Origin: a virus
Taxonomy: Duplodnaviria; Caudoviricetes
Virus record (IMG/VR): IMGVR_UViG_3300047558_000101
Coordinates: 1 to 60,734 of that record
Direction: 5' to 3' (one strand)
DNA: 60,734 bases
The position numbers and the translations under genes are program-made. This document shows positions 164 to 19,362 of the stretch, piece by piece. Numbering within the stretch: the stretch's first letter is position 1; each line of letters begins with the position of its first letter. The notes beneath the pieces were generated by a model. That model was not told where the DNA came from and did not search any database. It was given only the letters and a program-made list of their open reading frames with translations.

Positions 164-301
164 GCCATGCCCTTCGGGGCAACCCTACTACTATCATGTC
201 TGCCACGCTCCAGTATGCGTCGGGCCGCGCCATGGGCCTCTACTACTATCATGCGGCGGGCTAATTCTGTGGGATTAAATTACGGGCTTACCCGCCAGTT
301 G

Positions 302-310
302 TGTTATACT
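302..310 (+). promoter_or_regulatory. Extended -10 promoter (TGtTATACT) for the 388 gene
   Basis: TGnTATACT about 80 nt upstream of the ATG, with no good -35. Confidence 0.45.
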
Positions 311-387
311 TGTTTCCAAGTTGAAAGGGATTTCAACCCGCCGCCGGTGCTTACCGGTTAACTTGTTCACTTATTGGAGATTTCATC

Positions 388-1026
388 ATGGCAAAAGCAA
401 AAGCCCCCGCCGCAACTATTGTTGCAACCCGTATTGCCGCCGTTGGCACATTGATCAACGAAGCTGGCCAAGCCGCCAGCACAATGTTGGCAAAATGCAA
501 AGAAGCGGCCAAAGCCGCCAGCGCACAATTGGATGCGAAAAAACCCCTAGGGGAAAGAATCGCCGCCGTTGTGGCATTGTATGCGGATGATTTCAAAGCC
601 GCTGGTCACAATGTAAAGTCACTTTTCACGGATGCGTTAACTTTGCACGCCGCCGAAGCCGCCCCCGTTGTAGTATCGGTTATCGGTAAGGACGGCAAAA
701 AAGCGGACGAAGCCACTACAGCCGCAAAAGCCGTTGATTTATCTAAGCACAATATGCGGGACGCCGCAAAACAGGTACGGGAACAAAACGGCCTAGGCCG
801 CAAAGCCGGTGCTGGACGCAAACCCGCAAAACCCGCCGCCAGCTTACCCGCCGCCCCCGATATGAAAACCGAAGCGGACGCATTTTCGGCATGGCTGGAC
901 AATTTGCCAGAGTATTTGCTGGATGCGGTTTATCACCCCCGCATTGTTGCCCGATTGATCGAAAACGGGTACCGCTTGGAAAAAGCCGTGAAAGGCACCA
1001 AGATCACCGGCAAAGCCAGCGCCTAA
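388..1026 (+). CDS. Ala/Lys-rich early protein, possibly DNA-binding
   Basis: 212-aa ORF with a strong RBS and its own terminator. Basic low-complexity segment GRKAGAGRKPAKPAA. Confidence 0.8.
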   Translation: MAKAKAPAATIVATRIAAVGTLINEAGQAASTMLAKCKEAAKAASAQLDAKKPLGERIAAVVALYADDFKAAGHNVKSLFTDALTLHAAEAAPVVVSVIGKDGKKADEATTAAKAVDLSKHNMRDAAKQVREQNGLGRKAGAGRKPAKPAASLPAAPDMKTEADAFSAWLDNLPEYLLDAVYHPRIVARLIENGYRLEKAVKGTKITGKASA

Positions 1027-1037
1027 GCCGCCAGCCG

Positions 1038-1063
1038 AAGCCCCCCGCAAGGGGGGCTTTTTT
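1038..1063 (+). terminator. Rho-independent terminator
   Basis: AAGCCCCCC-GCAA-GGGGGGCTTTTTT directly after the 388..1026 stop. Confidence 0.9.
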
Positions 1064-1159
1064 GCGCCCAAAATTTGCCAATACCAGACTACTATCATGC
1101 TGCGCACACTACTATCATGCGGCGGCGTTGCGTGCGTGATGGCTAATCCCACGGGATTA

Positions 1160-1760
1160 CTCGCCACGAGTGATGTATTACCGAGGTATCGCCGACGAAT
1201 TTCAGACCACCTTGCAAACCCAAGCCCACATTGAAAAATTGCTGCTAAAGCCCTAGGCATGCGGGTTTGCGACACTTTAGACGATGTAGGGCGCATAGAG
1301 CCTAGGGGCACTTTTTGCTGCTATAACTTTTAATTGCGAGTAAATCCGTGAGATAAAAAAGCCTTTAAAATCAACGACTTACGGGGCTTGCACCCCCCTT
1401 TTATTTATTTATTAGTTTAATAGCTTTAGCAGATAGATTTAAGACAGGAATGTTGGAACGATTTCGGCCAGTGCCGACCGCCAAGCCCAACCCGTTACCC
1501 CCCGCCATAAAAATCTCTCTCATGCCTAAAATTGCTGCTAATCTGCTAAAGTCAGTATCCATGCGGGTTCCAGCGATTTCTATCTGCTAAAGTTATCATA
1601 TTGACATCTTTATTGCTGCTATAAACTCAACATCCTACAAAATTTCCCGACTTTTTAATCATAATTCCACGAAATTTATAAACTTGTTTGGCATCTGCTA
1701 AAGTCCAACCAACATCCTACAAAATTTCCCGATATTTTGTTTGTAAAAACACCCCATACG
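1160..1760. other. AT-rich non-coding region with short repeats (candidate origin or end-associated region)
   Basis: GCTAAAG x5 (one inverted), TTGCTGCTA x4, a 23-bp direct repeat at 1628-1650 and 1710-1732, and an IHF-like AATCAACGACTTA at 1369-1381. Confidence 0.6.
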
Positions 1761-1761
1761 C

Positions 1762-1790
1762 TTGACACGCCACGAGTATTCCGCTATAAT
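1762..1790 (+). promoter_or_regulatory. Consensus sigma70 early promoter
   Basis: TTGACA-17 bp-TATAAT, a perfect consensus. Confidence 0.92.
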
Positions 1791-1878
1791 GTAGTCTGTT
1801 GGGTCGTAAAGCGACTCAGCACCTCCCCTAATCCCACGGGATTAGATTCACTTGTTCACTTACTTTATGGAGTTCACC

Positions 1879-2127
1879 ATGGCAAAAACGCTCAAGCACA
1901 ACCCCGAGCACATCACCACCTATCGCACACGATCAGGTGCAACCCAGTACCGCCCATCCGTCGCTTATGGCATGTCTCTTGCTGCACTTGACCACGGATT
2001 CTGTCTTGCATGCGGCAACGATCAACCCGGCGTCGAGCCCGATGCACGCAAATACACATGCGACCATTGCGATGCTGACAAGGTTTACGGCATCGAAGAA
2101 TTGGCCCTGATGGGTCTCTTGTTTTAA
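1879..2127 (+). CDS. Small zinc-ribbon-like protein
   Basis: CLAC...CDHC motif and GGAG RBS. Its TAA stop is the first three bases of the palindrome at 2125. Confidence 0.75.
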   Translation: MAKTLKHNPEHITTYRTRSGATQYRPSVAYGMSLAALDHGFCLACGNDQPGVEPDARKYTCDHCDADKVYGIEELALMGLLF

Positions 2128-2151
2128 TCCCACGGAATTAAGGAATTCGTT

Positions 2152-2796
2152 ATGTCAAATTCACACGCAACAGTCGGCAAGCAGTTCGGCAAACTTAAAG
2201 CATGCAATGGCTCACGGATGAGCTCAGCACTTGTCGTGACACCCGGCCCACACAACGACGATATGGCCATCCATGCCAACAGGGTGTTTTACCGAGTGCA
2301 AGACGGCATCAGTTATCGCACCCCGGTTGCACGCATCATGCGCAATGCCCACACCAAAGAAAACGAGCTATGGCTCACATCACGATATTACTCGTCAAGC
2401 ACTCAGCGTCACAAAGGTTATTTCCGTGATGGGTTCGTCGCCGCTGGCAACAGCCCAGACAACATATACATAACCCCCGTGGTTGACCAACTGCTACACC
2501 GCCACAACCCAGACATCGTGCGCAACTCCATCGGGTTCGTCAACTGCATGCTCAAAGAGGTGGACAAGCCACGACTGCGTGAGGCTACCCGCAGGGGCAC
2601 CATCGACAGCTGTATTCACCATGCCGAGCGTGTCATGCACAACTTCACCCACAAGATACCGCTCGACCTGATTGACGCCGACGCCTATTACGACCTGCAA
2701 GCCATGATGGGCTTTTTACACAATCTCAAGAACGAGCCAGACATTGACGCCGTGCGTGCCGCTGTCAAGGGTCACTTTGCTTTATTGGAGGGTTAA
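2152..2796 (+). CDS. Hypothetical early protein
   Basis: 214-aa ORF with AAGGA RBS and phage-like codon use. Confidence 0.75.
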   Translation: MSNSHATVGKQFGKLKACNGSRMSSALVVTPGPHNDDMAIHANRVFYRVQDGISYRTPVARIMRNAHTKENELWLTSRYYSSSTQRHKGYFRDGFVAAGNSPDNIYITPVVDQLLHRHNPDIVRNSIGFVNCMLKEVDKPRLREATRRGTIDSCIHHAERVMHNFTHKIPLDLIDADAYYDLQAMMGFLHNLKNEPDIDAVRAAVKGHFALLEG

Positions 2797-2798
2797 TC

Positions 2799-3182
2799 AT
2801 GGGATACCGGTCAGAAGTCAAATACATTCTGTTGTTCAGCACTGAAGAACAGATCAACACTTTCAGGGCACATGCCCAGCTCACACTCGGCGACACCGAT
2901 GGTGGCAGGGAGATACTCGACCAGATGGACATACAAGTGATGGACTACGACACCGAGTTCAAGCACCGGCTGTATGTGTCGTGGGACGATGTAAAGTGGT
3001 ACGAGTCGTACCCGTGGGTACAGGTGCAAGAGGGGCTCATGGACTATGTGGGCGAGATGGATGGGTGCGCCTATGCGTTTGCCCGTTCGGGTGAGGAGCA
3101 TGGCGATGTTGAGACAAAAGCCAGCGACAACATCCACTTCTATGACTATATGGATGTACGCACCAGCGTAGATTTTGTTTGA
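2799..3182 (+). CDS. Hypothetical acidic protein (MGYRSEV... type)
   Basis: 127-aa ORF with GGAGG RBS. Confidence 0.75.
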   Translation: MGYRSEVKYILLFSTEEQINTFRAHAQLTLGDTDGGREILDQMDIQVMDYDTEFKHRLYVSWDDVKWYESYPWVQVQEGLMDYVGEMDGCAYAFARSGEEHGDVETKASDNIHFYDYMDVRTSVDFV

Positions 3183-3193
3183 GGGGAAATGCA

Positions 3194-3349
3194 ATGAATT
3201 ACAAACGACGAGCCAATGCCATCCACCCGTGGTCGATGTGGTACTGGACAACTGCGACCGAGGACTTACTCACGCTCGACAAGATGACGCTATACACATT
3301 CCGTCTGCTTGTTGACGAGGCTTTTAAAACACTTGACTGGAAGGACTAA
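3194..3349 (+). CDS. 51-aa hypothetical protein
   Basis: GAGGGG RBS. Fills the gap and ends at the TAA of the palindrome at 3347. Confidence 0.55.
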   Translation: MNYKRRANAIHPWSMWYWTTATEDLLTLDKMTLYTFRLLVDEAFKTLDWKD

Positions 3350-3353
3350 TCCC

Positions 3354-3560
3354 ATGGAATTAAACATCACATTCACCGAGCTCGCTCTGTTCTGCTGGGC
3401 GATCATCGCCACCGCTGGTGCGTTCAAATACTCAGACGAGGCGCGCACTGCCAAGCGCATGCTGTCGATCTTCACTGAGGACGAGAGCGTGCGCAACCAA
3501 GTGTTGCATGCACATGCCGAGTTCAAAGCCAAGGTCGAGGCGTGGAGGGCTAACTCGTGA
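3354..3560 (+). CDS. Small membrane-anchored protein
   Basis: ATG lies inside the palindrome, with AAGGA upstream. Hydrophobic N-terminus. Confidence 0.65.
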   Translation: MELNITFTELALFCWAIIATAGAFKYSDEARTAKRMLSIFTEDESVRNQVLHAHAEFKAKVEAWRANS

Positions 3561-3757
3561 AGCGAAAGCCAAGCCAAGCGACGCTAGCGATAGCGTTCAA
3601 GCAAGCGCAAGATGTAATGAATACGCTCGAGCCCGTGTTCGAGCGTGGCGACATCGACGAAGAACAGTTCAAACAGGCCGTGTATTTGTACACACAAGCA
3701 GTGCTGTCACGAGCACGCATCACCTCACTTCAATCAGTCAGGAGTAAATTCCAATGA
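3557..3757 (+). CDS. Hypothetical protein
   Basis: GTGA overlap with the upstream gene and GGAGG RBS. Confidence 0.6.
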   Translation: MKRKPSQATLAIAFKQAQDVMNTLEPVFERGDIDEEQFKQAVYLYTQAVLSRARITSLQSVRSKFQ

Positions 3758-4140
3758 ACGCCGCATTTTTTAAGACATCCATGCTATTGCGTGTAGCAAA
3801 GAAAGAGCTGTCGTGGGTTAATCCCATGGGATTATGCCAAGCCATTGGTGTGACGGCACACAAACTCGCTTGTTTAGGTGCAATACTCACAGCAAACGAA
3901 CTCGAAATACTTATCGAACACCGCATTCAACCCTTCGCCTATGCACACAGCTGGCTTGGGTGGAAGATGACATACCCACAGTACAAACTCAAAGACCTTG
4001 AGAAGTGGCCAAGCTGTGTGTGGGACAGAGCGTGCGACTGGGGCAACGATGTGCGCAACAACAACCCGATGGGGTTGCAAGCATGGCGACATGCGTGGCT
4101 AGATAAATTGATCGCTGAGTTTGAAGCGAAGGGAGATTGA
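3754..4140 (+). CDS. Hypothetical protein containing NPMGL twice
   Basis: AGGAG RBS and ATGA overlap. Confidence 0.7.
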   Translation: MNAAFFKTSMLLRVAKKELSWVNPMGLCQAIGVTAHKLACLGAILTANELEILIEHRIQPFAYAHSWLGWKMTYPQYKLKDLEKWPSCVWDRACDWGNDVRNNNPMGLQAWRHAWLDKLIAEFEAKGD

Positions 4141-4141
4141 G

Positions 4142-4351
4142 ATGAGTAAAGTTTTAGATTCGATCTGGTTCACACCGATGGGTGGTGCGTGCATCGGTGT
4201 CGTTGCAGTCGAGACCGAGTTCGATGGCCTTTGCTTTTATATCGGCCTTGGTGCTGGTGTTGACGAGGCACGGGATGCACAACATATTGCAGAGCGTGGC
4301 GCAAGATTCCCTTACGCCGCTGGTGTTGAATTATTGGGGGTAGAGATATGA
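4142..4351 (+). CDS. Hypothetical protein
   Basis: GGGAG RBS, coupled to the next gene. Confidence 0.65.
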   Translation: MSKVLDSIWFTPMGGACIGVVAVETEFDGLCFYIGLGAGVDEARDAQHIAERGARFPYAAGVELLGVEI

Positions 4352-4953
4352 GCAAAGATATTTACCAAAGCGAGACCTACGAGCACAAGAATGGGCTCAA
4401 GTACCATGTGTGCTGGTACCAAGACTATGACTCACAATCGCCACTGGAGTGGTCGGACTGCCACGGCGTGACCGAGCGCATGGACTGGAACCCCACCAAT
4501 GCAGAGCAGCTCGAGCAACACATCGCTGACTGTGAGCCCGAGGTTGAGGAGGTTGCACGACTGACGCTCATGCGCCAGCTATGCCGACCATCTAACTATT
4601 ACGACACAGGGCTGTATTACGATGTGCTCACCTCGTTGCACAATGCAAAGACTGAGTGGGGTTGCAAGACCCATGAAGATTGTGTCGCCGCTGTAGAGCG
4701 TGACTTCGCTTACCTCAAGGGCTGGTACGACAACGACTGGTTCTGGTTGACCATCGGCGTGGCACCGATAGACGAGGACGGCGAGCCCATCGAAGATGAT
4801 CGTGAATATTGTGGCGGGTATGAGAGCACCATACTCAACAACGACGATGACAACAAAGCATGGCGCATCGAGGTGATCGAGAATCAGATCGCTGAGGTCG
4901 AGTGGACGAGGCGCAAGAGCATACACAAAAACCAGCTGGAGTTGGCGTTATGA
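4348..4953 (+). CDS. Hypothetical acidic protein
   Basis: 201-aa ORF with ATGA overlaps on both sides. Confidence 0.75.
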   Translation: MSKDIYQSETYEHKNGLKYHVCWYQDYDSQSPLEWSDCHGVTERMDWNPTNAEQLEQHIADCEPEVEEVARLTLMRQLCRPSNYYDTGLYYDVLTSLHNAKTEWGCKTHEDCVAAVERDFAYLKGWYDNDWFWLTIGVAPIDEDGEPIEDDREYCGGYESTILNNDDDNKAWRIEVIENQIAEVEWTRRKSIHKNQLELAL

Positions 4954-5258
4954 GTAGACGATCGAACCGACGAAGCAAGGCCAAGCGTGCCCAAGCCTTA
5001 CTATCATGCCGCGCCGAGCTCGTGCTGTTGTATGACGGCGAGCGGATGCCCGACCACTACCTCGAGTGCGGGCTCACTGCAACGCGTGAGCTGATCAGCA
5101 TGAAAAAGTATTTGATCTGGAACGGATTCACACGACCATCTGGTTCAGTACCACTGAGCGCATACCAAGCCCAACTTGACATTGCTGCGAAGCAGTTGCA
5201 AAACGACCTCGACAGGGAACTCATCCGATCGTTGATGACCCCTTCACTTGACAAGTAG
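4950..5258 (+). CDS. Hypothetical protein
   Basis: ATGA overlap and GGAG RBS. Confidence 0.6.
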   Translation: MSRRSNRRSKAKRAQALLSCRAELVLLYDGERMPDHYLECGLTATRELISMKKYLIWNGFTRPSGSVPLSAYQAQLDIAAKQLQNDLDRELIRSLMTPSLDK

Positions 5259-5276
5259 CGGGTATCCTGCTACAAT
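5248..5276 (+). promoter_or_regulatory. sigma70 promoter
   Basis: TTGACA-17 bp-TACAAT, followed by a hairpin, the palindrome at 5329 and the leader motif. Confidence 0.88.
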
Positions 5277-5373
5277 ACTACCCATGAGCTGAGGAAACCG
5301 CTTCGGCTCATACAACTGACTCATTCACTAATCCCACGGGATTAACACACTTGTTTACTTACTGGAGATTTTT

Positions 5374-5805
5374 ATGGAAACACTTTCACCGACAGCCCCG
5401 CTGTTCGCTTCGTTCGTGCTGGACTTAGCGAAATACATCGTGCCTCATGTTGTTGCAGAGCTCAAAGCACAGACCAACGCCGAGGGCATGGGCATGATCG
5501 CACTTGACCCCAACAACTTGGCATTGCCCGTGTACACGCTGATGCAACACGACAGCAACATCCGTGACTTCCTCACGGGGATGATTGATGGCCATTACAA
5601 CGACAACATGCGCAGCATGAGCAAAAAGATCGACGAGCTCGACAACAAGGTTGATGACTTGGAGTCCAAGGTTGATGACATGGATAGCAAAGTCGATGAC
5701 TTTGATGACGAGCTCAACGCGGTGAAGAAAAACACCCCCAAAGTTGACGCTGACGACAGCGACTTCCAAGACGCAGTCATGTCCGTACTGCGCAAAAACA
5801 TTTAA
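5374..5805 (+). CDS. Acidic coiled-coil protein
   Basis: Heptad repeats KIDELDN/KVDDLES/KVDDMDS/KVDDFDD. Confidence 0.75.
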   Translation: METLSPTAPLFASFVLDLAKYIVPHVVAELKAQTNAEGMGMIALDPNNLALPVYTLMQHDSNIRDFLTGMIDGHYNDNMRSMSKKIDELDNKVDDLESKVDDMDSKVDDFDDELNAVKKNTPKVDADDSDFQDAVMSVLRKNI

Positions 5806-5815
5806 GGAGCAAACC

Positions 5816-6298
5816 ATGAAAGTTACTAAACTGCAAAAAGAAGCCATCGTTCGTGCCATCATGAATGATGTACCCAAGCCAAACAAGGCCACGCGCCATG
5901 CCAAAGTGCAAGCTGCGCTGGTCAAGGCCATGTCACCCGAGTGCCGCAAACTCTATGGCAAACGCCCTGACATCTTCACATCCGAGCACACAGGCGACAT
6001 CACCTATGACGGATGCAACTGGGCACTGCGCCATGTGATCATCGGCGACGCACCCAAAGAGAAACTGAAAGAAATCCTCGAGCCATACAAAGCCGAGGAC
6101 GAGAAATTCTACGAGGCCAAGCGCAACCTGACCAACGCCATCATGGCGTGCACCACGCTCAAAGCCTTGGAGACAACTTTCCCTGAGTTCAAAAAGTATT
6201 TCCCCACTGAGACACAACCCACCAAGAACTTGCCAGCACTTGCCAATGTGGTCGCTGACCTGAGCAAACTCGGCTGGCCGAAGGGAGAGAAAAAATGA
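5816..6298 (+). CDS. Nmad5-like (nucleotide-modification-associated) protein
   Basis: N-terminal TKLQKEAIVRAIMND and C-terminal TTLKALETTFPE resemble this phage family, recalled rather than searched. AAGGAG RBS. Confidence 0.55.
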   Translation: MKVTKLQKEAIVRAIMNDVPKPNKATRHAKVQAALVKAMSPECRKLYGKRPDIFTSEHTGDITYDGCNWALRHVIIGDAPKEKLKEILEPYKAEDEKFYEAKRNLTNAIMACTTLKALETTFPEFKKYFPTETQPTKNLPALANVVADLSKLGWPKGEKK

Positions 6299-6477
6299 GC
6301 GACATCATCAACATCGACAGCTACGAGCCCGACTACACCCACACCTGCGAGGTGTGTGGTGCCAACCATGTTGTCACCGGCGTGAAGGATGGCAAGGTGG
6401 TGTACCAAGGCGAGATGTGTGGCGTGTGTACATGGGGCGAGAGCGCCATGCGTGACCCGAAGGAGTGGAACAAATGA
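6295..6477 (+). CDS. Small Cys-rich protein
   Basis: CEVC...CGVC motif and ATGA overlap. Confidence 0.65.
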   Translation: MSDIINIDSYEPDYTHTCEVCGANHVVTGVKDGKVVYQGEMCGVCTWGESAMRDPKEWNK

Positions 6478-6797
6478 CAGACAAAACCGACATGACCGAA
6501 GAAGAACTCAAGCGTGAGGTCGATGCGCAAGCCTTGGCCGATCGTGTGTGGGAGATTCTTGTGCAGCGTGCCAATTCACAACTCGATGGTGTGATCGCAC
6601 TGGAGCCAACGATTCTGTACCCGCACATCGACCTCTGGTTTGCCGAAAGGACAGGCCACCATCACATCAAGGTAGGTAACCACACAATGACTAACCTGAT
6701 CGCCGATTCACTGACAGGCAACTACCGCATGCAGTCGTGGTTCAAACGAGAGATGCGTAATGAGATGCTAAACATCGTTCAACGCATGAATTTTTAA
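6474..6797 (+). CDS. Hypothetical protein
   Basis: AAGGAG RBS. The stop is the TAA of the palindrome at 6795. Confidence 0.7.
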   Translation: MTDKTDMTEEELKREVDAQALADRVWEILVQRANSQLDGVIALEPTILYPHIDLWFAERTGHHHIKVGNHTMTNLIADSLTGNYRMQSWFKREMRNEMLNIVQRMNF

Positions 6798-6821
6798 TCC
6801 CATGGAATTAAGGAGCAAACT

Positions 6822-7703
6822 ATGAGTATCAAAAACCACGCACTGCTGGTCTCACTTAGCGTGAGTAAGCCACAGATGACGAAGAAAGACGACAAAGCAA
6901 CTCGTGACGCCGAGAGTGCCAACAACGCACACGGCGCTGGTCAGTTCCGCAAGGACTTGTACCCCAAGTCGCTGGTGCAACCCATTCTCACAGTGGAGTC
7001 AAGTGCCCGTGCCTACATCGAGAGCGTGACCTATATGTGGACACGAGGCGAGTATCTCTTGCCGACTGCCAAGTTCATGGAGTTCACCGAGCGCATCGGC
7101 AAATACCAAGTCGAGTTCGATCAGTGCGTCACCGCATTCTTGAACAACTGGAGCAATGTGATGCAACAAGCACAGACATCGCAAGGTGAGCTGTTCGATG
7201 CCAACGCATACCCTGACTTGACCGACCTGAAGAATGACTTCCGCTTCCGTGTCAACTACCGCCCAGTGACTGATGCTGGTGACTTCCGTGTGCAGATGCA
7301 AGACGACGAGATGGACGCACTGCGTGCCGAGGTCGAGACTGCAACCCGTGAGTCCATGAACAACATGTTGCGTGCACCACTGGAGCGCCTCAAAGAAGTC
7401 GTACAGCGACTGCACGAGGTGACTGCCAAGGGCGACCGCGAGGTGTTGAACAAAAAGACCGGTGTGATTGACCTGCGCCCACCGATCTTCCGTGACTCAG
7501 TGGTGGACAACATCATGGAGGAAATTAACTTGCTGCATGCGTTCGCTGATGTCATGCCTGACAATGTGCTTGCCATTGCCAAGGAGATCGCTGACACCAC
7601 GCCGCACCCACAACAACTGCGTGACAACCCCGATGCACGCAAAGAGGTCAACACACAGACCGCCGCTTTACTCAACTCAATCAACGCTATGCTGGAGGAA
7701 TAA
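6822..7703 (+). CDS. DUF3150-like helical protein
   Basis: 293 aa. Resembles from memory the protein that accompanies AAA/vWA pairs in phages and ICEs. AAGGAG RBS. Confidence 0.55.
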   Translation: MSIKNHALLVSLSVSKPQMTKKDDKATRDAESANNAHGAGQFRKDLYPKSLVQPILTVESSARAYIESVTYMWTRGEYLLPTAKFMEFTERIGKYQVEFDQCVTAFLNNWSNVMQQAQTSQGELFDANAYPDLTDLKNDFRFRVNYRPVTDAGDFRVQMQDDEMDALRAEVETATRESMNNMLRAPLERLKEVVQRLHEVTAKGDREVLNKKTGVIDLRPPIFRDSVVDNIMEEINLLHAFADVMPDNVLAIAKEIADTTPHPQQLRDNPDARKEVNTQTAALLNSINAMLEE

Positions 7704-7706
7704 ACC

Positions 7707-8045
7707 ATGTCAATCAAAGAGAAAACAATCGAGCGCCTTGTCAATCAACTTGCCAACTTGGGCTGCGAGTTCAAAGTCATCACAGAGGACGGCACCGAAT
7801 ACGGCGAGCTGACTGCTGTCAGCAAAAAGCACAAGACCGATGTGCTCAAGCATGTGGACTACAAAACTGTTCTGGCCAACATGAAAGCCGGTGATGTCGA
7901 GGTGCTGGTGTGTCCCGAAGGCATCCCGCTGGAGTCACTGCGCTCATCAATCAGCGGACATGGTGCTGCAAACTATGGTGCTGGCACATTCGCCACCATG
8001 ATCAACAAAGACAACAACACTGTTGAAGTGTTGCGTATGGAATAA
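7707..8045 (+). CDS. Hypothetical protein
   Basis: 112-aa ORF with GGAGG RBS. Confidence 0.75.
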   Translation: MSIKEKTIERLVNQLANLGCEFKVITEDGTEYGELTAVSKKHKTDVLKHVDYKTVLANMKAGDVEVLVCPEGIPLESLRSSISGHGAANYGAGTFATMINKDNNTVEVLRME

Positions 8046-8047
8046 CC

Positions 8048-8290: not shown

Positions 8291-8293
8291 AAT
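8265..8293 (+). promoter_or_regulatory. Putative sigma70 promoter
   Basis: TTGCAC-17 bp-TAAAAT upstream of the 8332 gene. Confidence 0.5.
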
Positions 8294-8331
8294 CATCGTT
8301 CACTTATCCACTCAACTACTTAGGAAAACCG

Positions 8332-8544: not shown

Positions 8545-8602
8545 TCCCACGGGATTAACCCGTTGCCAGTGCGGTTCACTGGCACATCAACAACTTGTTT
8601 AC

Positions 8603-8631: not shown

Positions 8632-8638
8632 AGACACC

Positions 8639-10782: not shown

Positions 10783-10784
10783 TC

Positions 10785-11921: not shown

Positions 11922-11930
11922 AAGAAAACT

Positions 11931-12212
11931 ATGCTTTACAAACTCGAAAAAGAATTGTTGAACCGCCTCGTGCGAATTGAATCCAAACTCGTGCGAGGGT
12001 TCGAGGAGCTGGGCGTAAACATCGACAAGGACAACGAGTGGTTAACCCTCGACGAAGAGTCCGCCGTGGTGTATGTGTCTACGCTCGGTCGTTCCATGAC
12101 TGTGTTGCTCAGCGACATGGCGCGTGCAGGTGCGACCAAAGAGGGCAAGCAGTATGACATCGTGCATCGTGGCGACATCATTGGCAACATCACATTTAGG
12201 AAAATCACATGA
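11931..12212 (+). CDS. Hypothetical protein
   Basis: 93-aa ORF within the operon. Confidence 0.65.
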   Translation: MLYKLEKELLNRLVRIESKLVRGFEELGVNIDKDNEWLTLDEESAVVYVSTLGRSMTVLLSDMARAGATKEGKQYDIVHRGDIIGNITFRKIT

Positions 12213-12403
12213 CAAACTATCATGCACTCCCCGACCTCAACCCGACAACGCGGTGCTTTCCGCGCTCGTTGCTGCAAGCGTGGCCCAACGATTACCCTGA
12301 GTGGTTCGAGCCGCACGAGCGTAAATCCCATGGGATTAGCGTGTGGTTAGGTCTAGGCTGTTGGGTTGTTGGTGCACTTGTTTACTGGAGGTATGTGTTA
12401 TGA
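12209..12403 (+). CDS. Small protein with a C-terminal TM segment
   Basis: TRCFPRSL motif and hydrophobic tail. Contains the palindrome at 12323. Confidence 0.6.
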   Translation: MTNYHALPDLNPTTRCFPRSLLQAWPNDYPEWFEPHERKSHGISVWLGLGCWVVGALVYWRYVL

Positions 12404-12522
12404 ATTGCAAGCATAGGTACGAGCCGACAAACTTCGGCATCAAGTATCGCACCCCAAACAGTTACTGGTGGAGTTGCGTGCGTTGTGGCAACACGATCTT
12501 TTCTGAACTCAAGGAGAGGTGA
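12400..12522 (+). CDS. 40-aa Cys/His peptide
   Basis: CKH...CVRC motif, GGAGG RBS and ATGA overlap. Confidence 0.5.
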   Translation: MNCKHRYEPTNFGIKYRTPNSYWWSCVRCGNTIFSELKER

Positions 12523-12911
12523 TGACAAGCTATTCATGGAATGCCAGCAACACTTCGCATGGTGTCGTTGCACAAGAGATTGAAAGCGTTATTCCATACT
12601 CAACAATAAATATTGTTGACTCAAATCAGCAGCCAGCTAACATCGTATTCTTCAACAACAACGACAACACTGAATTACTTCGCATAACTGCTGACGGCGT
12701 GACTGCAAACCCGAATGTGCCGGTCGATGAGATTGCACAGCGAGTGCTGGTAGCGCTGAATAGCGGCATCAAACAGATGGTGCGTAAGAAGTGGAAACCG
12801 CTGACGCCAGAAGAATTGCGCCAGTGCTACTCGCACGCGCTTGAGTACGACAAAGATTTGGCTGATGTGATTCATCAGGCATTGGTAGATAAACATCACT
12901 GGGAGGATTGA
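12522..12911 (+). CDS. Hypothetical protein with tail-fibre-like motifs
   Basis: GVVAQEIE and ELLRITADG motifs. AAGGAG RBS. Confidence 0.65.
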   Translation: MTSYSWNASNTSHGVVAQEIESVIPYSTINIVDSNQQPANIVFFNNNDNTELLRITADGVTANPNVPVDEIAQRVLVALNSGIKQMVRKKWKPLTPEELRQCYSHALEYDKDLADVIHQALVDKHHWED

Positions 12912-12912
12912 C

Positions 12913-14379
12913 ATGAGAGAAATTAAATTGATCGGCAGCACCATGCTGCCATTCGTGGTGACATTCTTCGCCATGTACTTGGTGGGTTCGTTCGTGTCTG
13001 TGAGCTGGGACATTGCAGCATGGACATGGGAGCTTCGTGTGCTGATGGCGACATTCGGCATTACCTTTGGCTTTGCATTGTGGATGCGCTTGGAGGTGGG
13101 ACGATGAGTAACAAACAACCGGCAGCGTGGGGCATGGAGCATCCAGATGGGGACATCATTGATGTGATTACGCCAGAAGAACACGCTAAAAAAGAAGGCC
13201 AGTACACAGTTGCGCTTTATCGTTGGTGTGAGCCGTTAACTGAACGCGAGATTGAACTAATTGACGGGATGATTGAGGTGCAACTGCAACACGCTATGCA
13301 ATGCGATCGTATTAGTAACCGCACGATGGCTGACAAGCAAAAGGGGTGGGACATGGAACGAGTCGCGTTACTGCAAAAACTAAAGGAACTCAACACATGA
13401 CATGGCCATTCCCAACTACACCGATACCTGCGGGTGGCAAGCCACCTAAGTACAACCCAAACAATGAGGAGGACGCACCACTGTGAAAACCGTGCTTGCA
13501 CCGGGTGCGCCTTGGTACAACACTGCCAAGCCCAAAGTGGTGGCCACCAAGCCGAAAAAAGAAAAGGTGCCAAAGCGTAGACGCGCTAGGCCGAGTCAGA
13601 TCGACGACAACTTTAGAAACTGGTTAATCAAACAGGGGTTTATAAATGACTGATGAAGATGATGAGTTCGCACGCATCGAGCGTGAACAAGCAAGCGGAT
13701 GGCGCAAGCGCCAGATTACAAACACACAAACAGCCGAGCAAAGCCACATGTATGAAATGGGCTGGAACTCTGGTTTGGAAATGGCGGCGTACAGAATCGT
13801 GCACGACTTCAAGCATGCGTTCGGCGAGGACACAGTTGCAAGTTTTGCAGCGTACATAAAGGGGCTGAAAAAATGAGTGATCTATTACTTTTCTTTGGCA
13901 CCATCGTTGGTGTGATCGTCATCGTGCTGACCTTATACACGATAGATAAGATGAGCGGCTGCTGGCACAAATTCGACAAGTGGATGGACGACAGCACAGA
14001 TGTGGCTTATGTGCAATGGCGCAGCTGCACAAAGTGCGGGTACATAGAGCGAGAGCAGTTCAGAAAGTTTAAGGAGCGCAAAGATGACAGCACTTGAGAA
14101 CATTGCACTAATGGCTGTGCTGATGATGCTTGGCGTTGGAGTGACTGTTGCTATGTTGCTTGGGTTCGTATACTGGCTGGAGATTCAAGACGAGTGAAAG
14201 CCATGATCGAGATCGTAAAAACATACAGCGGCGTACCACGGGTACGGCAGGGGTGGGGTGGAGTTGTCGAGCAAAAAGCTAGGGTGACCATCAGCTATCT
14301 CTATCGCTGCACGTTTTGCGGTCGTCTGTTTACTGACAAAGCAAAAGCGAAAGAGCACAGCCATGAGGAAACGAAGTAA
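12913..14379 (+). CDS. Run of small translationally coupled hypothetical genes (12913-13107, 13104-13400, 13397-13486, 13483-13653, 13646-13876, 13873-14097, 14084-14197, 14194-14379)
   Basis: Abutting or overlapping ORFs with RBSs. Several are hydrophobic or Cys-containing. Confidence 0.6.
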
Positions 14380-14830
14380 GTACAAACCAAAGGGGCAGCT
14401 ACCTGACCCGGTGACATGGGTGCTTGCTGGCATCAAACCATTCAAGGAGGTACCGAGCAGCATCGACATACGCATCAAGAACCATGCAGCCATGGATGCA
14501 CTGCGCAAAGGTGAAGCGGGAAAACCAGAGGTTGACATTTTGATTGGTGCGTTTAACATGACGGAAGCGTATGCAAGACTACGCCCCGAATTAGGTGCTG
14601 ACTGGGCTGACGAGATTAAGAATGGACAAGACGCGTTGCTCGCTGTTGCGAAGCGTGGTGTTGAGACAGGCAGGTTTATTCTGAAGGCATCAGAGCTGAC
14701 AGCTATGAACCTTGTCATGGAGTTGCACGATGTGCAGCTGGACAACACGACTGTGCGTGACATGGAGCTGGCAATGGATGTGATCGACAAAGAGTACAAA
14801 CTACGCAAGATGCGTGCAGTGAAGGAGTGA
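14363..14830 (+). CDS. Hypothetical protein
   Basis: 155 aa with a basic N-terminus, MRKRSKYKPK. Confidence 0.75.
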   Translation: MRKRSKYKPKGQLPDPVTWVLAGIKPFKEVPSSIDIRIKNHAAMDALRKGEAGKPEVDILIGAFNMTEAYARLRPELGADWADEIKNGQDALLAVAKRGVETGRFILKASELTAMNLVMELHDVQLDNTTVRDMELAMDVIDKEYKLRKMRAVKE

Positions 14831-14863
14831 TGAAATGATTGAAGTACTGAACGGGAGCAAAGA

Positions 14864-15265
14864 ATGAATATTGAAAAAGACTGGATAACAGCGGCAGGGT
14901 TGCGTGCTGTGATTGTTGCTACGCCGATGGGGCACCGCTGTGGGTATGTGGGCGTGCCACTAGGCCATGTGCACTACGGCAAGTTCTATGACGATATGCC
15001 CCACGAGATAGAGGTGCATGGTGGGCTGACATATTCAAGCAATGACAACAACTACCCAGTTGAGTCTGACCTATATTGGTTTGGATATGACTGCGCACAC
15101 TTGGGCGACAAAAAAGACCCGGCGTTGATGAGCGATAGGTACAAAGAGGTGTACAGCGTGATGCTAGACCTACTTCGCATGGACGAGGTTGTTCGTGATT
15201 TGCCGTTCTGCATAAATGAATGCGAGAACTTGGCGATTCAACTACAAGGGGGGTCGTTGCCATGA
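14864..15265 (+). CDS. Phage hypothetical protein (CGYVGVP...VHGGLTY...GYDCAH)
   Basis: Recognisable recurrent phage motif set. Confidence 0.75.
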   Translation: MNIEKDWITAAGLRAVIVATPMGHRCGYVGVPLGHVHYGKFYDDMPHEIEVHGGLTYSSNDNNYPVESDLYWFGYDCAHLGDKKDPALMSDRYKEVYSVMLDLLRMDEVVRDLPFCINECENLAIQLQGGSLP

Positions 15266-15462
15266 AAGGCTCGAGCATGGTGAGATGGGCTGTGCAGTTC
15301 AAAGGTCGATTCATACGAGTTGGCACAGCGAACTTGTACAGTTTGTTTTTAACACGCAAAGAGGCAGAAGAATCGTTTGTGCATGCTGTTGAAAGCAGCA
15401 AGTACAGAGCGGTAAAAGTGAAAATTCGATTAACTGAAACTACGGAAGGTGTAAACAAATGA
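15262..15462 (+). CDS. Hypothetical protein
   Basis: ATGA overlaps on both sides. Confidence 0.55.
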   Translation: MKGSSMVRWAVQFKGRFIRVGTANLYSLFLTRKEAEESFVHAVESSKYRAVKVKIRLTETTEGVNK

Positions 15463-15824
15463 GAGCAAAGAAACCAGTGATGCGTAAGACAACACGCGCA
15501 GAAAAAATCAGCAGACCAGCTGTGTATGAAGTGGAAGATAAAAAGCCACTGACCACAACAGAGATGCTGAAGCAACGAGGTAATCGCTATGGCTCGTTCG
15601 TCGGCCATGCAAAAGTGACACAGGATTTGAAAGAGTTAATCCGCATGCACCTTGAGCAACGAGATAAGGCATTGTCGGATGATCAGCAAGAAGCCATGGA
15701 TATGATCTGTCACAAAATAGGTCGCATTATTAACGGCGATGCGGATTACTTTGACAGCTGGAAAGACATCGCTGGCTATGCACAGCTGGTGTCAGATCGT
15801 TTGGAAAAAGGAGTAGAGCTATGA
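15459..15824 (+). CDS. DUF6378-like protein
   Basis: RGNRYGSF...KIGRIINGD...DSWKDIAGYAQL motif. Confidence 0.75.
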   Translation: MRAKKPVMRKTTRAEKISRPAVYEVEDKKPLTTTEMLKQRGNRYGSFVGHAKVTQDLKELIRMHLEQRDKALSDDQQEAMDMICHKIGRIINGDADYFDSWKDIAGYAQLVSDRLEKGVEL

Positions 15825-16342
15825 GTGAAGTAATGGTTGACCTAGAGACCCTAGGTAACGGCAGCAATGCTGCCATCATCTCCATCGGTGCAGTTGCATT
15901 CGACCCTGCGAGCGGACAGATCGAGAGCGAGTTCTATGTGAATGTTGACCCACAGAGTTGCGTGGACGCTGGCTTGAAGATGGATGTCAGCACAGTGATG
16001 TGGTGGATGAAACAGTCCGATGACGCACGAGCTGCGTTCACCAAGCCGAGCGTGCCACTGGCGCTGGCACTGGATATGTTCAAAGGCTGGTACCCACAAG
16101 GTGCAGGTATGTGGGGCAACGGTGCCACATTCGACAATGTGATTCTGGACAACGCGTTCAAAGCCACAGGCATCAACCGCCCATGGCACTTCACCAAAGA
16201 TCGCTGCTACCGCACGCTCAAAGCACTGCGCCCTGACGTCAAGCAAGAGCGAGTGGGCACACACCACAACGCGTTGGATGATGCAAAGTTCCAAGCCCTG
16301 CACGCGTGCAAACTGCTGCGTGCGTTGGGGGCAAAGACATGA
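15821..16342 (+). CDS. DEDD 3'-5' exonuclease (Rv2179c-like / exonuclease VIII-like)
   Basis: VMVDLETLG, WGNGATFD and HNALDDA motifs. Confidence 0.88.
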   Translation: MSEVMVDLETLGNGSNAAIISIGAVAFDPASGQIESEFYVNVDPQSCVDAGLKMDVSTVMWWMKQSDDARAAFTKPSVPLALALDMFKGWYPQGAGMWGNGATFDNVILDNAFKATGINRPWHFTKDRCYRTLKALRPDVKQERVGTHHNALDDAKFQALHACKLLRALGAKT

Positions 16343-16758
16343 GCGACGAAGTAGACGCATTCACATATTCGTCCATGCGTGGCATGACAACGAAAGAACT
16401 GCAAGAAGTGCAAGCTAAACGCTTGTCAGCAGCAACACAACGGCAAATTAACGGAGGTCTTATGAATACAGGTATAGCAGGTGCGATGGGTAACGCAGCA
16501 CAAGGCAGCGTTCTTGCAAGCAACGCCGCAATTTCCAACACACCGCTGGTGATGAAAACTAGCCCCGGCCCCGACCGCATCATTCGCTCGAAGGTTGAGT
16601 TGAGCTTAAACATCATCCAAGCCGAGAACGGATTCATTGTGCATGTCGGCAATCACTACGGCGGGTTAACTGATGTGCATATTGCCGCAACGCTCGAAGA
16701 TGTGAACACCATCATCACATCGCAACTGGCGTCACGCATGCTTGATCGGACTGAGTAA
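16339..16758 (+). CDS. Hypothetical protein
   Basis: ATGA overlap and IIQAENGFIV motif. Confidence 0.65.
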   Translation: MSDEVDAFTYSSMRGMTTKELQEVQAKRLSAATQRQINGGLMNTGIAGAMGNAAQGSVLASNAAISNTPLVMKTSPGPDRIIRSKVELSLNIIQAENGFIVHVGNHYGGLTDVHIAATLEDVNTIITSQLASRMLDRTE

Positions 16759-16991
16759 TGTCGGGCATGGTTTTTTACAAAGAGGCCATGCGCCTCGACT
16801 CGAGCGGCAACATAGGTATAGGTTCATTCCCGCAACGCAGTAAAAATATTCTGGACTTCACAGTGTATGAAGATGGTAGCGGGTACACAGTTATTGCAGG
16901 TAGTGGCGACGCTGTTACTGTAAAAACTTATGAAGAAGTTGAAGAGCTGTTCCGCCTTCGCTTTGCTGAGTGGAAATTGGAGCGTGACTGA
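16758..16991 (+). CDS. Hypothetical protein
   Basis: TAATG overlap. N-terminal EAMRLDSSGNIGIG. Confidence 0.55.
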   Translation: MSGMVFYKEAMRLDSSGNIGIGSFPQRSKNILDFTVYEDGSGYTVIAGSGDAVTVKTYEEVEELFRLRFAEWKLERD

Positions 16992-17029
16992 TGTATACTG
17001 TAAGCACGTAAACATACTAAGGAAAGCAA

Positions 17030-17530
17030 ATGAGCGCAAAAAATACACCCGAATCATTTTGGGGACGCGTAGACCAATCTAGCTCTGGTTGCTGGGAGTG
17101 GCGGGGTTCTAAAACTAGCTCTGGATATGGCAATTTGTCATGGCATGGGGCGCGAGTTCAGGCTCACCGCGTCGCGTATTTTTTGTCGTTCGGCGGAATT
17201 AAGTTAGAAACTCAATTTCGTCAAGACGGTCGGGCAAAGGCGTACAGGCGATTCGTGCTACACAAGTGTGATAACAGAGCGTGCTGTCGCCCAGATCACC
17301 TATTTCTAGGCTCCATGCGTGCTAACTTAATAGACGCGTACGCCAAGGGTAGAAAGTCGCAACCAAAAAGCGAGCATGTAAACGCCAAACTAACAAAGAA
17401 ACATGTCAAAGAAATACGTGAAGAGTACACCATAAAAGGTACAAGGCAGGTTGAGTTAGCGGCTCGCTATGGCGTAAGTCAACGAGTAATTAGCCTAGTT
17501 GTTAGGCACGAAACTTATAAGGACACATGA
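17030..17530 (+). CDS. HNH homing endonuclease with C-terminal HTH
   Basis: CWEWRG...AHRVAY...VLHKCDNRACCRPDHL, then AKLT...LAARYGVS. Confidence 0.9.
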   Translation: MSAKNTPESFWGRVDQSSSGCWEWRGSKTSSGYGNLSWHGARVQAHRVAYFLSFGGIKLETQFRQDGRAKAYRRFVLHKCDNRACCRPDHLFLGSMRANLIDAYAKGRKSQPKSEHVNAKLTKKHVKEIREEYTIKGTRQVELAARYGVSQRVISLVVRHETYKDT

Positions 17531-19362
17531 TGGATATTCTTACAATAGACATGGAAACCTACTACGACAAGGATTACTCTTTGTCGAAGATGCAGACAGA
17601 CGCATACATCAGCGACGACCTCTTTGAAGTCATCGGTGTGGCTGTCATTAAGAACGACGAAGATGCTGTGTGGTTCAGTGGCACAGAGCTGGAGGTCGCA
17701 GGGTGGTTGTATAGATACGACTGGGCCAACAGCGCTGTGCGCTGCCACAACACTTTGTTCGATGGGTACATCTTGACGCAACGCTTTGGCATATCGCCTA
17801 AGCTGTGGATGGACACCCTCGCACAAGGGCGCATGCTGTTGCCGTACTTGCAGTACCACTCGTTGGCCAACCTCGCCAAGCAATACAACCTGCCCGACAA
17901 AGGCACAGCGGTTGTGAAGGCGCTGGGCAAACGCCGTGAGGACTTTAATCCCATGGAATTAAACGAGTACGCCGAATACTGCAAACACGACACATGGCTG
18001 TGTAAAGAGTTGGGCAAACGCTTCGACCCCTACACACCTGCACTGGAGTTGAAGCTCATCGACATGACGGTGCGCATGTTCACTGAGCCGATGCTGGTGG
18101 GTGACCAAGCCAAGATGCAAGAGCTGTACGACCTAGAGATCGCACGCAAAGAAGAACTGTTGAAAGCCGCCAATGTAGATCGCACGATCATCATGTCCAA
18201 CGATAAGTTCGCTGCGAAGTTGATGGAGCTGGGTGTGACACCACCCACAAAGACAAGCAAAACCACTGGAAAGGAAACCTATGCCTTCGCAAAATCAGAC
18301 AAAGAATTCACCGACCTCTTGGAGTCCGATGATGCGGATGTACAGGCGCTGGTTGCAGCTCGTCTGGGTGTTAAAACAACCATTGCGGAAACGCGAGCGC
18401 TGAAGTTCTTAGAGACCGCCAAGCGTGGCCCGTTGCCTGTGTACCTCAATTTCTGGGGCGCTAAGACCACGGGGCGCTACTCTGGTGGCAATTCCATCAA
18501 CTGGCAAAACATCCCTGCGCGCGGCCCTTCAGCGGGCCTGCGTGATGCGCTGCTGGCACCGCTCGGACACACCGTGCTGGTGGGTGACTCATCCAACATT
18601 GAACTCCGCACAGTGATGGCGCTGGCTGGCCAAGACGATGTGTTGCTCAAGCTGCAAAACGGCGTTGACCTGTACTGTGACTTCGCATCGAAGTTGTTCG
18701 GGCGCACGATCACCAAGGCTGACAAGGGCGAGCGCTTCTTGGGTAAGACAGCGATGCTGGGCTTGCAGTACGGCGCTGGTGCCAAGCGATTCCAAGAGAT
18801 GGTTCGCCTTGCAAAACGCACAGACCCCACAGTGGAGCTGATCGACCTCGATCGTGCCTATGCCATCGTGGACTTGTACCGCTCGGTGCACTACAAGGTG
18901 GTGGAGTTGTGGAAGCGTTGCGACAAGGTGATCTTGCCTGACATCGCCAATGGATGCAGCATGCTCAATGTGGATGTGAACGGCTGGTTCATCACCCAGT
19001 GGGATGGCTTTGGTCGCCCCGGCGAGCCCGGTGTCATGTACAACGACCTGAAGTATGACGGCAACGAGTGGACATACCTGATGGGTAAACAGCGCGTGGG
19101 CATCCACGGCGCAAAAGTTGTAGAAAATTTATCGCAACATGCTGCAATGCGCATCGTTATGTGGCAAACTGCGCGTATCAATCAACGCTACCCAGTCAAA
19201 CTGTCCGTTCACGATGAGGCTGTCTGTGTGGTGAAGAATGATGAACTTGATGAAGCGCGTGCGTATATGGAAGAGTGCCTTGCAATGACACCCAAGTGGT
19301 GCCGCAGCATTCCCGTTGCGTGTGAAACTGGAGTAGGAGGGAGCTATGGAGATGCTAAGTAA
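17527..19362 (+). CDS. polA: Family A DNA polymerase with 3'-5' exonuclease domain
   Basis: IDMET exo I, HNTLFD, TTGRYSG, motif A DSSNIELR, motif B KTAMLGLQYG, motif C VHDE. Confidence 0.95.
   Translation: MMDILTIDMETYYDKDYSLSKMQTDAYISDDLFEVIGVAVIKNDEDAVWFSGTELEVAGWLYRYDWANSAVRCHNTLFDGYILTQRFGISPKLWMDTLAQGRMLLPYLQYHSLANLAKQYNLPDKGTAVVKALGKRREDFNPMELNEYAEYCKHDTWLCKELGKRFDPYTPALELKLIDMTVRMFTEPMLVGDQAKMQELYDLEIARKEELLKAANVDRTIIMSNDKFAAKLMELGVTPPTKTSKTTGKETYAFAKSDKEFTDLLESDDADVQALVAARLGVKTTIAETRALKFLETAKRGPLPVYLNFWGAKTTGRYSGGNSINWQNIPARGPSAGLRDALLAPLGHTVLVGDSSNIELRTVMALAGQDDVLLKLQNGVDLYCDFASKLFGRTITKADKGERFLGKTAMLGLQYGAGAKRFQEMVRLAKRTDPTVELIDLDRAYAIVDLYRSVHYKVVELWKRCDKVILPDIANGCSMLNVDVNGWFITQWDGFGRPGEPGVMYNDLKYDGNEWTYLMGKQRVGIHGAKVVENLSQHAAMRIVMWQTARINQRYPVKLSVHDEAVCVVKNDELDEARAYMEECLAMTPKWCRSIPVACETGVGGSYGDAK

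Follow-up and report, generated by a model that had tools for sequence, protein, structure and literature searches.

A 16-bp palindrome repeated at gene junctions along the early arm of an uncultured phage family, and its possible role as an operator

What might a phage gain from carrying the same 16-bp palindrome some thirteen times along one arm of its genome? The question is raised by IMG/VR record IMGVR_UViG_3300047558_000101, a virus of the Caudoviricetes, whose 60,734 nucleotides we analysed in full and refer to here as the window (the window is the whole record, which is labelled 'linear' and given a CheckV value of 76%). Its early and replication genes lie on the + strand, from 1 to ~28 kb, and the genes for virion, lysis and packaging functions on the - strand, between 29 and 60.7 kb. 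No other short element of the window is repeated nearly as often as the palindrome, TAATCCCAYGGRATTA. Judged from sequence, a sequence-specific reader would explain it best, and we rate a reader that acts on DNA as more likely than one that acts on RNA.

A pattern scan of the window returns ten exact copies, all on the + strand, at positions 1144, 1829, 2125, 3347, 3819, 5329, 6795, 8542, 10476 and 17946, and a mismatch scan adds three copies with one mismatch (262, 8950 and 12323) and two with three mismatches (1341 on the - strand and 1662 on the + strand). The exact pattern has no match in 100 shuffles of the window, and the scan at up to three mismatches yields 28 strand-matches against 0.38 expected. 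Beyond position 17961 there is no match in the whole window, even at three mismatches. The thirteen sites are confined to 262-17961, with gaps of 296-1847 bp and a last gap of 5623 bp, and if sites were placed uniformly the probability that all 13 would fall within the first 17961 of 60734 bases is, by our arithmetic, ~1e-7. These scans bear out what a first-pass annotation, made from the letters alone, had reported as to the list of sites, their spacing with one outlier and their confinement to the left arm, and its two weak 13/16 matches, at 1341 (reverse) and 1662, are recovered as the 3-mismatch sites. The confinement recurs in 5 of 5 complete relatives.

The palindrome is a hallmark of a phage family rather than a quirk of a single genome. 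A motif scan of viral contigs gave at least 118 loci that contain it; among the motif loci listed, 105 have genes homologous to those of the window (identity of PolA 50-90%), and 13 have none, 11 of these 13 having a single site. When 80 loci were instead drawn independently of the motif, by homology to the VWA protein alone, 77 turned out to contain the palindrome once or more, counting copies with no more than one mismatch. The five complete relatives (59-61 kb) have 6-12 copies each, all inside one early stretch of 8-16 kb, and a reversed-pattern control in these five genomes found none. Gene maps reveal the same layout of sites across genomes, from 5' of the first gene to PolA, including positionally conserved copies before the genes for the DUF3150-like protein, the ATPase and the VWA protein and a copy inside PolA, while the genes between conserved sites vary widely among relatives and the sites and core genes stay constant. 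Over this range the proteins have diverged to 40-60% identity while a 14-base motif has remained unchanged, which argues for a sequence-specific reader. In the PolA copy, moreover, the motif is kept while the encoded residues change (NPMEL, NPTGL and NPMGL in relatives), so selection there acts on nucleotides. No near relative among deposited phages was found by megablast; the nearest by protein are the Rhizobium phages RHph_TM27A and kin and the Pseudomonas phage Rollin, at 24-35% identity. Searching the literature for the palindrome or its core, in either orientation, found it in no paper. One complete relative, G005, has a 127-bp repeat at its ends, which looks like an assembly overlap because it is located inside the first-gene homologue.

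The sites follow the boundaries of genes. In 133 of 282 distinct contexts the TAA of the motif is the stop codon of an upstream frame 40 or more codons long, and a Shine-Dalgarno sequence with a start codon follows within 150 nt of the site in 211 of the 282, mostly at 10-30 nt. A leader, ACTTGTTYACTTAYTGGAG, stands 3' of 72 of the 282 sites, in gene sense in all 72 and on the other strand in none; the order of leader and palindrome is reversed in relative G004. The placement in leaders and at gene junctions noticed in the first-pass annotation is therefore upheld, but its placement 'inside CDSs' mostly is not, as this applies clearly to 17946 only and perhaps to 3819 and 12323.

A second regularity concerns promoters. 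Near-consensus promoters of the form TTGACA-17-TAYAAT number two or three per genome. Counting promoter-like hits (at least 10 of 12 matches) by distance in 10-nt bins, we found 49 whose -10 element lies 60-80 nt 5' of a site centre (two bins), against 0.7 expected per bin. A second group of 10 hits lies just 3' of a site and consists of the first-gene promoter and of promoters of the type found at 8603 in the window; the copy before the first gene lies 10-25 nt 5' of that gene's -35 element. The distance from palindrome to strong promoter varies, as does the side on which the promoter lies, and there is none close to most copies. The earlier suggestion that the sites do not sit at promoters as ordinary operators do was not borne out, given their regular spacing to two or three near-consensus sigma-70 promoters per genome. 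Two runs labelled RNA-Seq, available as contigs only, were marked as probably DNA.

The form of the motif is informative about the kind of reader. Across the family the consensus is a true dyad, TAATCCC-RY-GGGATTA, with 7-bp arms and a fixed 2-bp centre; both arms read TAAT...ATTA around CCC-NN-GGG in 285 of 311 contexts, and most copies are perfect. The centre, read in gene sense over 348 distinct contexts, is AC in 134, AT in 121, GT in 69 and GC in 18. In the window the asymmetric variants are strictly polar, as had been proposed: the CACG centre reads on the + strand in 5 of 5 cases (1144, 1829, 2125, 5329 and 8542) and the GAATTA arm in 4 of 4 (2125, 3347, 6795 and 17946), with 262 alone flipped. 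The proposal does not extend to the relatives, where CACG and CGTG centres stand at 134:69 and where one genome, G001, has six CGTG centres against four CACG. The strict polarity of the window is a ~2:1 bias of the family, not a rule of it, and the occurrence of both orientations with respect to transcription is as expected for a symmetric dimer on double-stranded DNA.

Variation within the arms is similarly structured. Variants with AAAT in one arm number 20 and those with AAAT in both arms 0, and we saw no compensatory double changes in the arms. The variant GGAATTA (G12 to A) is present on the gene-proximal side in 12 contexts outside PolA, at ~7 independent positions, several of them adjoining a ribosome-binding site, and its mirror image in 3 contexts, always in the site 5' of the first gene. 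One variation is concerted. In a sub-clade of four loci (L318, L319, L321 and L322), all copies, 1-8 per locus, read WATTCCC-RY-GGGAATW and stand at the same junctions. The PolA proteins of this sub-clade are 92-97% identical among themselves and ~73% identical to those of the nearest other relatives, and the first-gene product of a TAATCCC-type phage, L040, is ~85% identical to the homologues of the switched clade. Three hybrid sites have one arm of each type, which breaks their self-complementarity; the arms thus behave as half-sites independent of each other.

In the explanation that we prefer, at a probability of roughly 45%, a symmetric DNA-binding regulator encoded by the phage would use the sites as operators and so block or tune the transcription of early genes. 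TAATCCC-RY-GGGATTA would be the operator of a two-fold symmetric, sequence-specific DNA-binding protein encoded by the family. Host RNA polymerase would transcribe the early genes from the two or three near-consensus sigma-70 promoters, with one site 50-80 nt 3' of each promoter and the others at cistron junctions through the early and replication genes, so that the promoter-proximal copy would come ~40-70 nt into each strongly promoted transcript. As the protein accumulates it would occupy the sites and act as a roadblock along the early arm, in the manner of the stoperators of certain mycobacteriophages, and the copy 5' of the first-gene promoter would give feedback on the first gene. The sequences show the sites, their conservation through the family, their positions and the concerted change in the sub-clade; that the sites are read on DNA, that the effect is a roadblock and which protein is involved are matters we infer. 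We favour a dimer that is symmetric and bound to double-stranded DNA because the dyad is exact, the RY centre free and both orientations are used, because the arms vary independently and without compensatory change, and because some copies lie past a terminator or 5' of a promoter.

Several observations weigh against this explanation. No helix-turn-helix, ribbon-helix-helix, ParB or repressor family was found with Pfam and PHROGs in the 34 early open reading frames (ORFs) scanned, of ~55 predicted. The two candidates that were modelled show no recognisable DNA-binding fold: the model of the first-gene product, encoded at 388-1026 (predicted local distance difference test score, pLDDT, 88), had a best Foldseek E of 2 and a best VIA Z of 6.9, and the model of the 11931-12212 product (pLDDT 78) a best Z of 4.1. 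A purely symmetric DNA model would predict the strand bias of the G12A variant (12 against 3) only if the neighbouring ribosome-binding site imposed a further constraint, and it leaves the 2:1 excess of CACG over CGTG unaccounted for. Most copies are followed by a start codon at 10-30 nt, a placement that would suit translational control too, and within operons the palindrome doubles as an RNA hairpin, perfect copies folding at -5 to -9 kcal/mol (z ~ -3).

The last of these points lead directly to the alternative that survives best, although we consider it unlikely: an RNA element with a 6-bp stem and a 4-nt loop, between cistrons or in 5' leaders, through which a phage protein would repress translation or process or stabilise the RNA. 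All in-operon copies would be transcribed together with the genes, and the frequencies with which the TAA closes an upstream frame and a start codon follows, the tight link to a leader found in gene sense only, the stability of the folded perfect copies and the strand bias of centre and G12A variant all fit such an element, as does the fact that the look-alike extended start-associated sequences (ESAS/SAS) of Cluster K mycobacteriophages are proposed, in an excerpt of PMC3203893, to act in translation initiation. The pattern of variation speaks for DNA instead: the stem is invariant and the loop variable, compensatory changes are absent, the hybrid sites disrupt pairing, and the common G12A change gives a C-A mismatch in the sense RNA that abolishes the fold (as mRNA, the GAATTA variants fold no better than shuffles, z ~0). 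Proteins read the major groove of B-DNA easily and a fully paired RNA stem rarely. Some copies are, in addition, far from start codons: site 1144 is poorly placed for a role in RNA because it lies past a strong terminator and 735 nt from a start codon, and the copy before the first gene is ill-suited to one because it lies 5' of that gene's -35 element. A known RNA family was rejected, as Rfam gave no match at E up to 1 over 1-19000.

If the reader is a protein on DNA, which protein could it be? A more specific form of the operator explanation, that a family-specific homodimer without a known DNA-binding fold (the 388-1026 product or another core early protein) reads the sites in a lytic counterpart of the stoperator system and turns off the early arm as a whole, we regard as doubtful. 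The first-gene product, a basic protein with a conserved GxGRKxGGGRKP stretch, is a candidate only. Its predicted homodimer scores 0.83, against 0.00 for the best control; in a benchmark, this mark was reached by 20 of the 30 proteins whose solved structure is a homomeric pair and by 1 of the 23 whose solved structure is monomeric. Its dimer runs have at least 76% of contacts in common and a partner pLDDT of at least 76. Homologues form more than 380 metagenomic clusters, all unnamed. Profile searches with three families against PDB sequences gave nothing, and the 388-1026 family has no homology to the first early gene of the Rhizobium phage (hhalign probability 0.2).

We also looked for co-variation with the motif switch, taking columns that are at least 95% conserved in TAATCCC-type phages and changed in all WATTCCC-type phages. 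Such columns number 6 of 78 in the DUF3150-like protein, 1 of 20 in the 388-1026 product (H74A), 8 of 258 in the SNF2 protein and 0 of 25 in the 11931-12212 product. At best this hints at which protein is the reader, since the switched phages also form a phylogenetic group of their own and H74 varies in a first alignment.

That no phage reader has been found could also mean that the motif is the box of a host regulator or nucleoid protein exploited by the phages and conserved by way of that host protein, and both the sub-clade switch and the different palindrome of the Rhizobium phage described below could then track changes of host. We judge this improbable. Scanning 185,579 species genomes gave at least 120 stretches with, among the matches listed, one site each, the number expected by chance for 14 specified bases, and the literature search found the motif in no paper. 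The sole multi-copy match listed, L148, is itself a phage contig of the family. This 45-kb contig, which lies in a Sericytochromatia metagenome-assembled genome, encodes an ATPase 86% and a PolA 78% identical to those of the window; its binning there is not evidence for a host.

The variability of the genes between constant sites and core genes brings up recombination, with the palindrome primarily marking module boundaries for cassette swaps, as the promoter-early stem-loop (PeSL) motifs of T4-type phages, described as exchange points in an excerpt of PMC4122927, do. Contigs of related strains indeed join the flanks of sites, namely 2125 to 8542 (two runs, one study), 2127 to 1827 and 8559 to 6828, but these joints come from metagenome contigs at 85% likeness in which strains may be mixed. 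Sixteen base pairs are short for homologous exchange, and this explanation leaves the deep exact conservation, the concerted switch, the PolA site and the early-arm confinement unaccounted for. As a primary function we think it quite improbable; the palindrome is probably used for cassette exchange too, in our view as a side effect.

The first-pass annotation favoured a protein that acts on the arm, possibly the first to be injected, by way of the sites; that it coats, protects or ratchets in this arm without any role in gene control is an explanation we hold to be very improbable. The sites do lie in one arm that adjoins the terminase genes, and a large injected polyvalent protein is encoded, but the sites follow gene junctions and promoters, their spacing is uneven, and the related Rhizobium phage has its palindrome genome-wide.

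The poorest of the explanations that we graded, and one with hardly any claim on our belief, is an antitermination site comparable to lambda N/nut or HK022 put, at which a nascent hairpin loads a factor onto RNA polymerase. Promoter-proximal copies ~40-70 nt into the transcript, accompanied by a conserved single-stranded motif, would be in keeping with it. However, 10-13 copies per genome are far above one per operon, some of them are not part of any transcript, we recognised no N-like protein, and the loop or centre is not conserved, whereas lambda N reads the boxB loop. We consider an N4-like virion RNA polymerase with hairpin promoters improbable, as the Pfam and PHROGs scans gave no polymerase family among the proteins covered, the 1947-aa protein of the virion module looks like a polyvalent protein, and transcripts begun 11-12 nt from the dyad centre would have a truncated ribosome-binding site at sites such as 2125 and 6795; an intrinsic terminator was rejected, as no T-run follows the motif and a terminator scan does not select the sites. 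There are no tRNA genes in the window.

How does the palindrome compare with known dispersed elements? The ESAS/SAS of Cluster K mycobacteriophages, as the excerpts of PMC3203893 describe them, are the closest in layout. There, a start-associated sequence that contains the ribosome-binding site occurs in one orientation and in the non-structural half of the genome only, about half of these sequences have an inverted repeat directly 5', the stop codon of the upstream gene can fall inside the element, and the consensus of the repeat varies by sub-cluster, as it does here between TAATCCC and WATTCCC sub-clades. A gene-sense leader with a Shine-Dalgarno sequence, downstream of the 72 sites mentioned above, is likewise a feature of the SAS type. 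The ESAS repeats of the same excerpts are, in contrast, imperfect and 17 bp long with a spacer of 4-13 bp, where ours have perfect 7-bp arms around a fixed 2-bp centre. Moreover, the two share no likeness in sequence, phage lineage and host are unrelated, and the present palindrome is also found in the absence of the leader motif, inside PolA and 5' of promoters.

Cluster A phages have stoperators, read by L5 gp71 and its relatives, which resemble our sites in that numerous copies stand at promoters and, inside operons, in the short gaps between genes, and the phage protein bound to them halts elongating RNA polymerase (excerpts of PMC9283540). In those excerpts the stoperator is nevertheless an asymmetric 13-mer, read by a monomer in one orientation and spread over the whole genome of temperate phages, unlike the dyad found here in mixed orientation in the early arm only. 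The stoperator protein is a helix-turn-helix repressor, and none was found here among the scanned ORFs. Nor did the family scans of window proteins find lysogeny genes; repressor and integrase families were absent with Pfam and PHROGs from the 34 early ORFs, with Pfam from 8 late ORFs and with PHROGs from 10. The PeSL cassettes are similar in being repeated composite motifs between early genes, in variable regions and at exchange points, and different in being longer units of promoter and terminator that are not strictly conserved across deep divergence (excerpts of PMC4122927), as against a bare 16-bp dyad separable from promoters.

Other systems can be set beside these. The dispersed palindromes of 12-16 bp in the ParB-parS, Noc-NBS and RK2 KorA/KorB systems are read by dimers; here the sites track the gene junctions of one arm, and no ParB-like domain was found in the scanned proteins. 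The statement in the first-pass annotation that no ParB-, Noc- or CI-like protein is recognisable agrees with the Pfam scan of the 34 early-region ORFs (of ~55 predicted), which found none. The conserved inverted repeats (CIRs) bound by the phiC31 repressor are reportedly 17 bp long, with many highly conserved intergenic copies in the early region; phiC31 is said to be a temperate Streptomyces phage with a known repressor gene. As a short perfect dyad with a fixed centre, the palindrome belongs to neither the ESAS/SAS nor the stoperators, and the phage group is uncultured, is unrelated to Clusters K and A and looks lytic.

A distant analogue exists in culture. The Rhizobium phage RHph_TM27A (MN988461.1; loci L254, L325 and L326) has 38 copies of GTTACC-N6-GGTAAC with at most one mismatch, spread genome-wide, where a control gave 0; it has the same early gene order, with PolA at 35% identity. 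On our reading of its annotation, ~25 of the 38 copies lie at gene junctions, one of them directly after the major capsid gene. No paper that we found names these Rhizobium phages. In Pseudomonas phage Rollin this palindrome is absent from the whole record, and the 17 kb examined contain no repeated palindrome. A trio of DUF3150-like protein, AAA ATPase and VWA protein is conserved in the present family. The Rhizobium phage, which like the family has dispersed palindromes, encodes the ATPase and the VWA protein too, and Rollin lacks the VWA gene; we claim no link because three lineages are too few.

The individual sites of the window illustrate the range of contexts. The first, at 262-277, is degenerate (TAATTCTGTGGGATTA), reads best on the - strand, lies 5' of the first-gene promoter and has ACTACTATCAT directly before it; at the equivalent position, 5 of 6 complete genomes have a copy with 1-2 mismatches, and the copy of G005, at 60165, is perfect. 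It is followed by a start-associated leader motif, AACTTGTTYACTTAYTGGAGA, at 360-380 (+), which is conserved across the family, includes the ribosome-binding site and has more copies from 5348 and 9146 and additionally near 61, 1849, 10750 and 12370. The first gene, at 388-1026 (+), encodes a 212-aa basic protein of no known family and is followed by a strong intrinsic terminator at 1041-1062 (+), and the perfect palindrome at 1144-1159, which stands in ~700 bp of non-coding DNA, lies 85 nt past this terminator and 735 nt before the next start codon. Flanking the first gene are five copies of ACTACTATCAY, all on the + strand (3-13, 187-197, 242-252, 1088-1098 and 1108-1118); copies lie 10-25 nt 5' of the palindromes at 262 and 1144, no -35 element accompanies them, and in relatives the repeat occurs 3-5 times at equivalent positions, in forward orientation throughout.

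From ~1160 to ~1760 there follows a non-coding stretch of ~600 bp, with several TGCTGCTAAAG / ATCTGCTAAAGT repeats and a 23-nt direct repeat at ~1628-1650 and ~1710-1732, which could be an origin or control region. The 3-mismatch match at 1341-1356 is a decayed copy, since relatives L033 and L260 have a perfect site at the same place, within the same flanks; the one at 1662-1677, seen in the mismatch scan only and without support from relatives, is of doubtful membership.

Further sites are found in leaders and at stop codons. A consensus sigma-70-type promoter, TTGACA-17-TATAAT, at 1762-1790 (+), precedes the perfect copy at 1829-1844, which stands in a 5' leader 35 nt before the ATG at 1879. 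The copies at 2125-2140 and 3347-3362 have the GAATTA arm, and their TAA is the stop codon of the ORFs 1879-2127 and 3194-3349, respectively; at 2125 a Shine-Dalgarno sequence and the ATG at 2152 follow directly. The perfect and fully symmetric copy at 3819-3834 lies within or at the start of a predicted ORF (3754-4140). Another perfect leader copy, at 5329-5344, lies 3' of a near-consensus sigma-70-type promoter with a TG element (TTGACA-17-TACAAT, 5248-5276, +) and is followed by the leader motif and the ATG at 5374. The copy at 6795-6810, again with a GAATTA arm, supplies the stop codon of ORF 6474-6797 and lies 11 nt before the gene for the DUF3150-like protein (6822-7703, +), with the ribosome-binding site of that gene immediately 3'; a site 5' of this gene is present in 6 of 6 mapped genomes.

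In the perfect copy at 8542-8557 the TAA is the stop codon of ORF 8332-8544, and the site is 5' of a third promoter, near-consensus sigma-70-type TTGACT-17-TATAAT at 8603-8631 (+). The copy at 8950-8965, with a CAAG centre, lies 5' of the gene for a MoxR-type AAA ATPase (9160-10179, +), and the perfect, symmetric copy at 10476-10491 closes ORF 10182-10478, ahead of the gene for the DUF2201 metallopeptidase/VWA protein (10785-11921, +). The last two are the copy at 12323-12338, with one mismatch (AAATCCC), and that at 17946-17961, within the PolA gene (17527-19362, +), where the TAA is out of frame. An SNF2 helicase and a DUF927 primase are also encoded in the early and replication arm.

A few further genes deserve mention. 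The product of 5816-6298 matches Pfam Nmad5, nucleotide-modification-associated domain 5 (E 3.6e-10, above the cut-off), and the phage may accordingly modify its own DNA, to go by this match. An HNH homing endonuclease gene at 17030-17530 lies directly 5' of PolA and overlaps it, and a GIY-YIG/HNH-type endonuclease gene at 59250-60134 adjoins that for the large terminase. The 1947-aa protein of the virion module (29059-34902, -) has no Pfam or PHROG family and no match among PDB sequences; its nearest Atlas clusters have large-polyvalent-protein domains (LPD38, LPD39 and MuF_C), at a score of 0.98, although the first match is possibly the cluster of the protein itself. Within a tail-fibre gene, a sequence with a 30-nt period is repeated nine times in tandem at 38271-38660.

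If the operator explanation holds, a large and widespread group of freshwater phages would run its entire early programme through one short operator repeated at every transcription unit, read by a protein outside any described family. Should that protein be the putative homodimer, it would represent a new DNA-recognition fold and provide naturally orthogonal pairs of roadblock repressor and operator, with a specificity re-set from TAATCCC to WATTCCC between phages whose candidate proteins are ~85% identical. The finding would also bear on the unsolved ESAS/SAS of mycobacteriophages, a lineage unrelated to this one in which the layout is the same. Its interest is chiefly that the reader can be sought with the help of the natural switch and of the analogue cultured in Rhizobium: the change in specificity, together with the 38-copy palindrome of the Rhizobium phage, would offer a direct route to the reader and to its recognition code.

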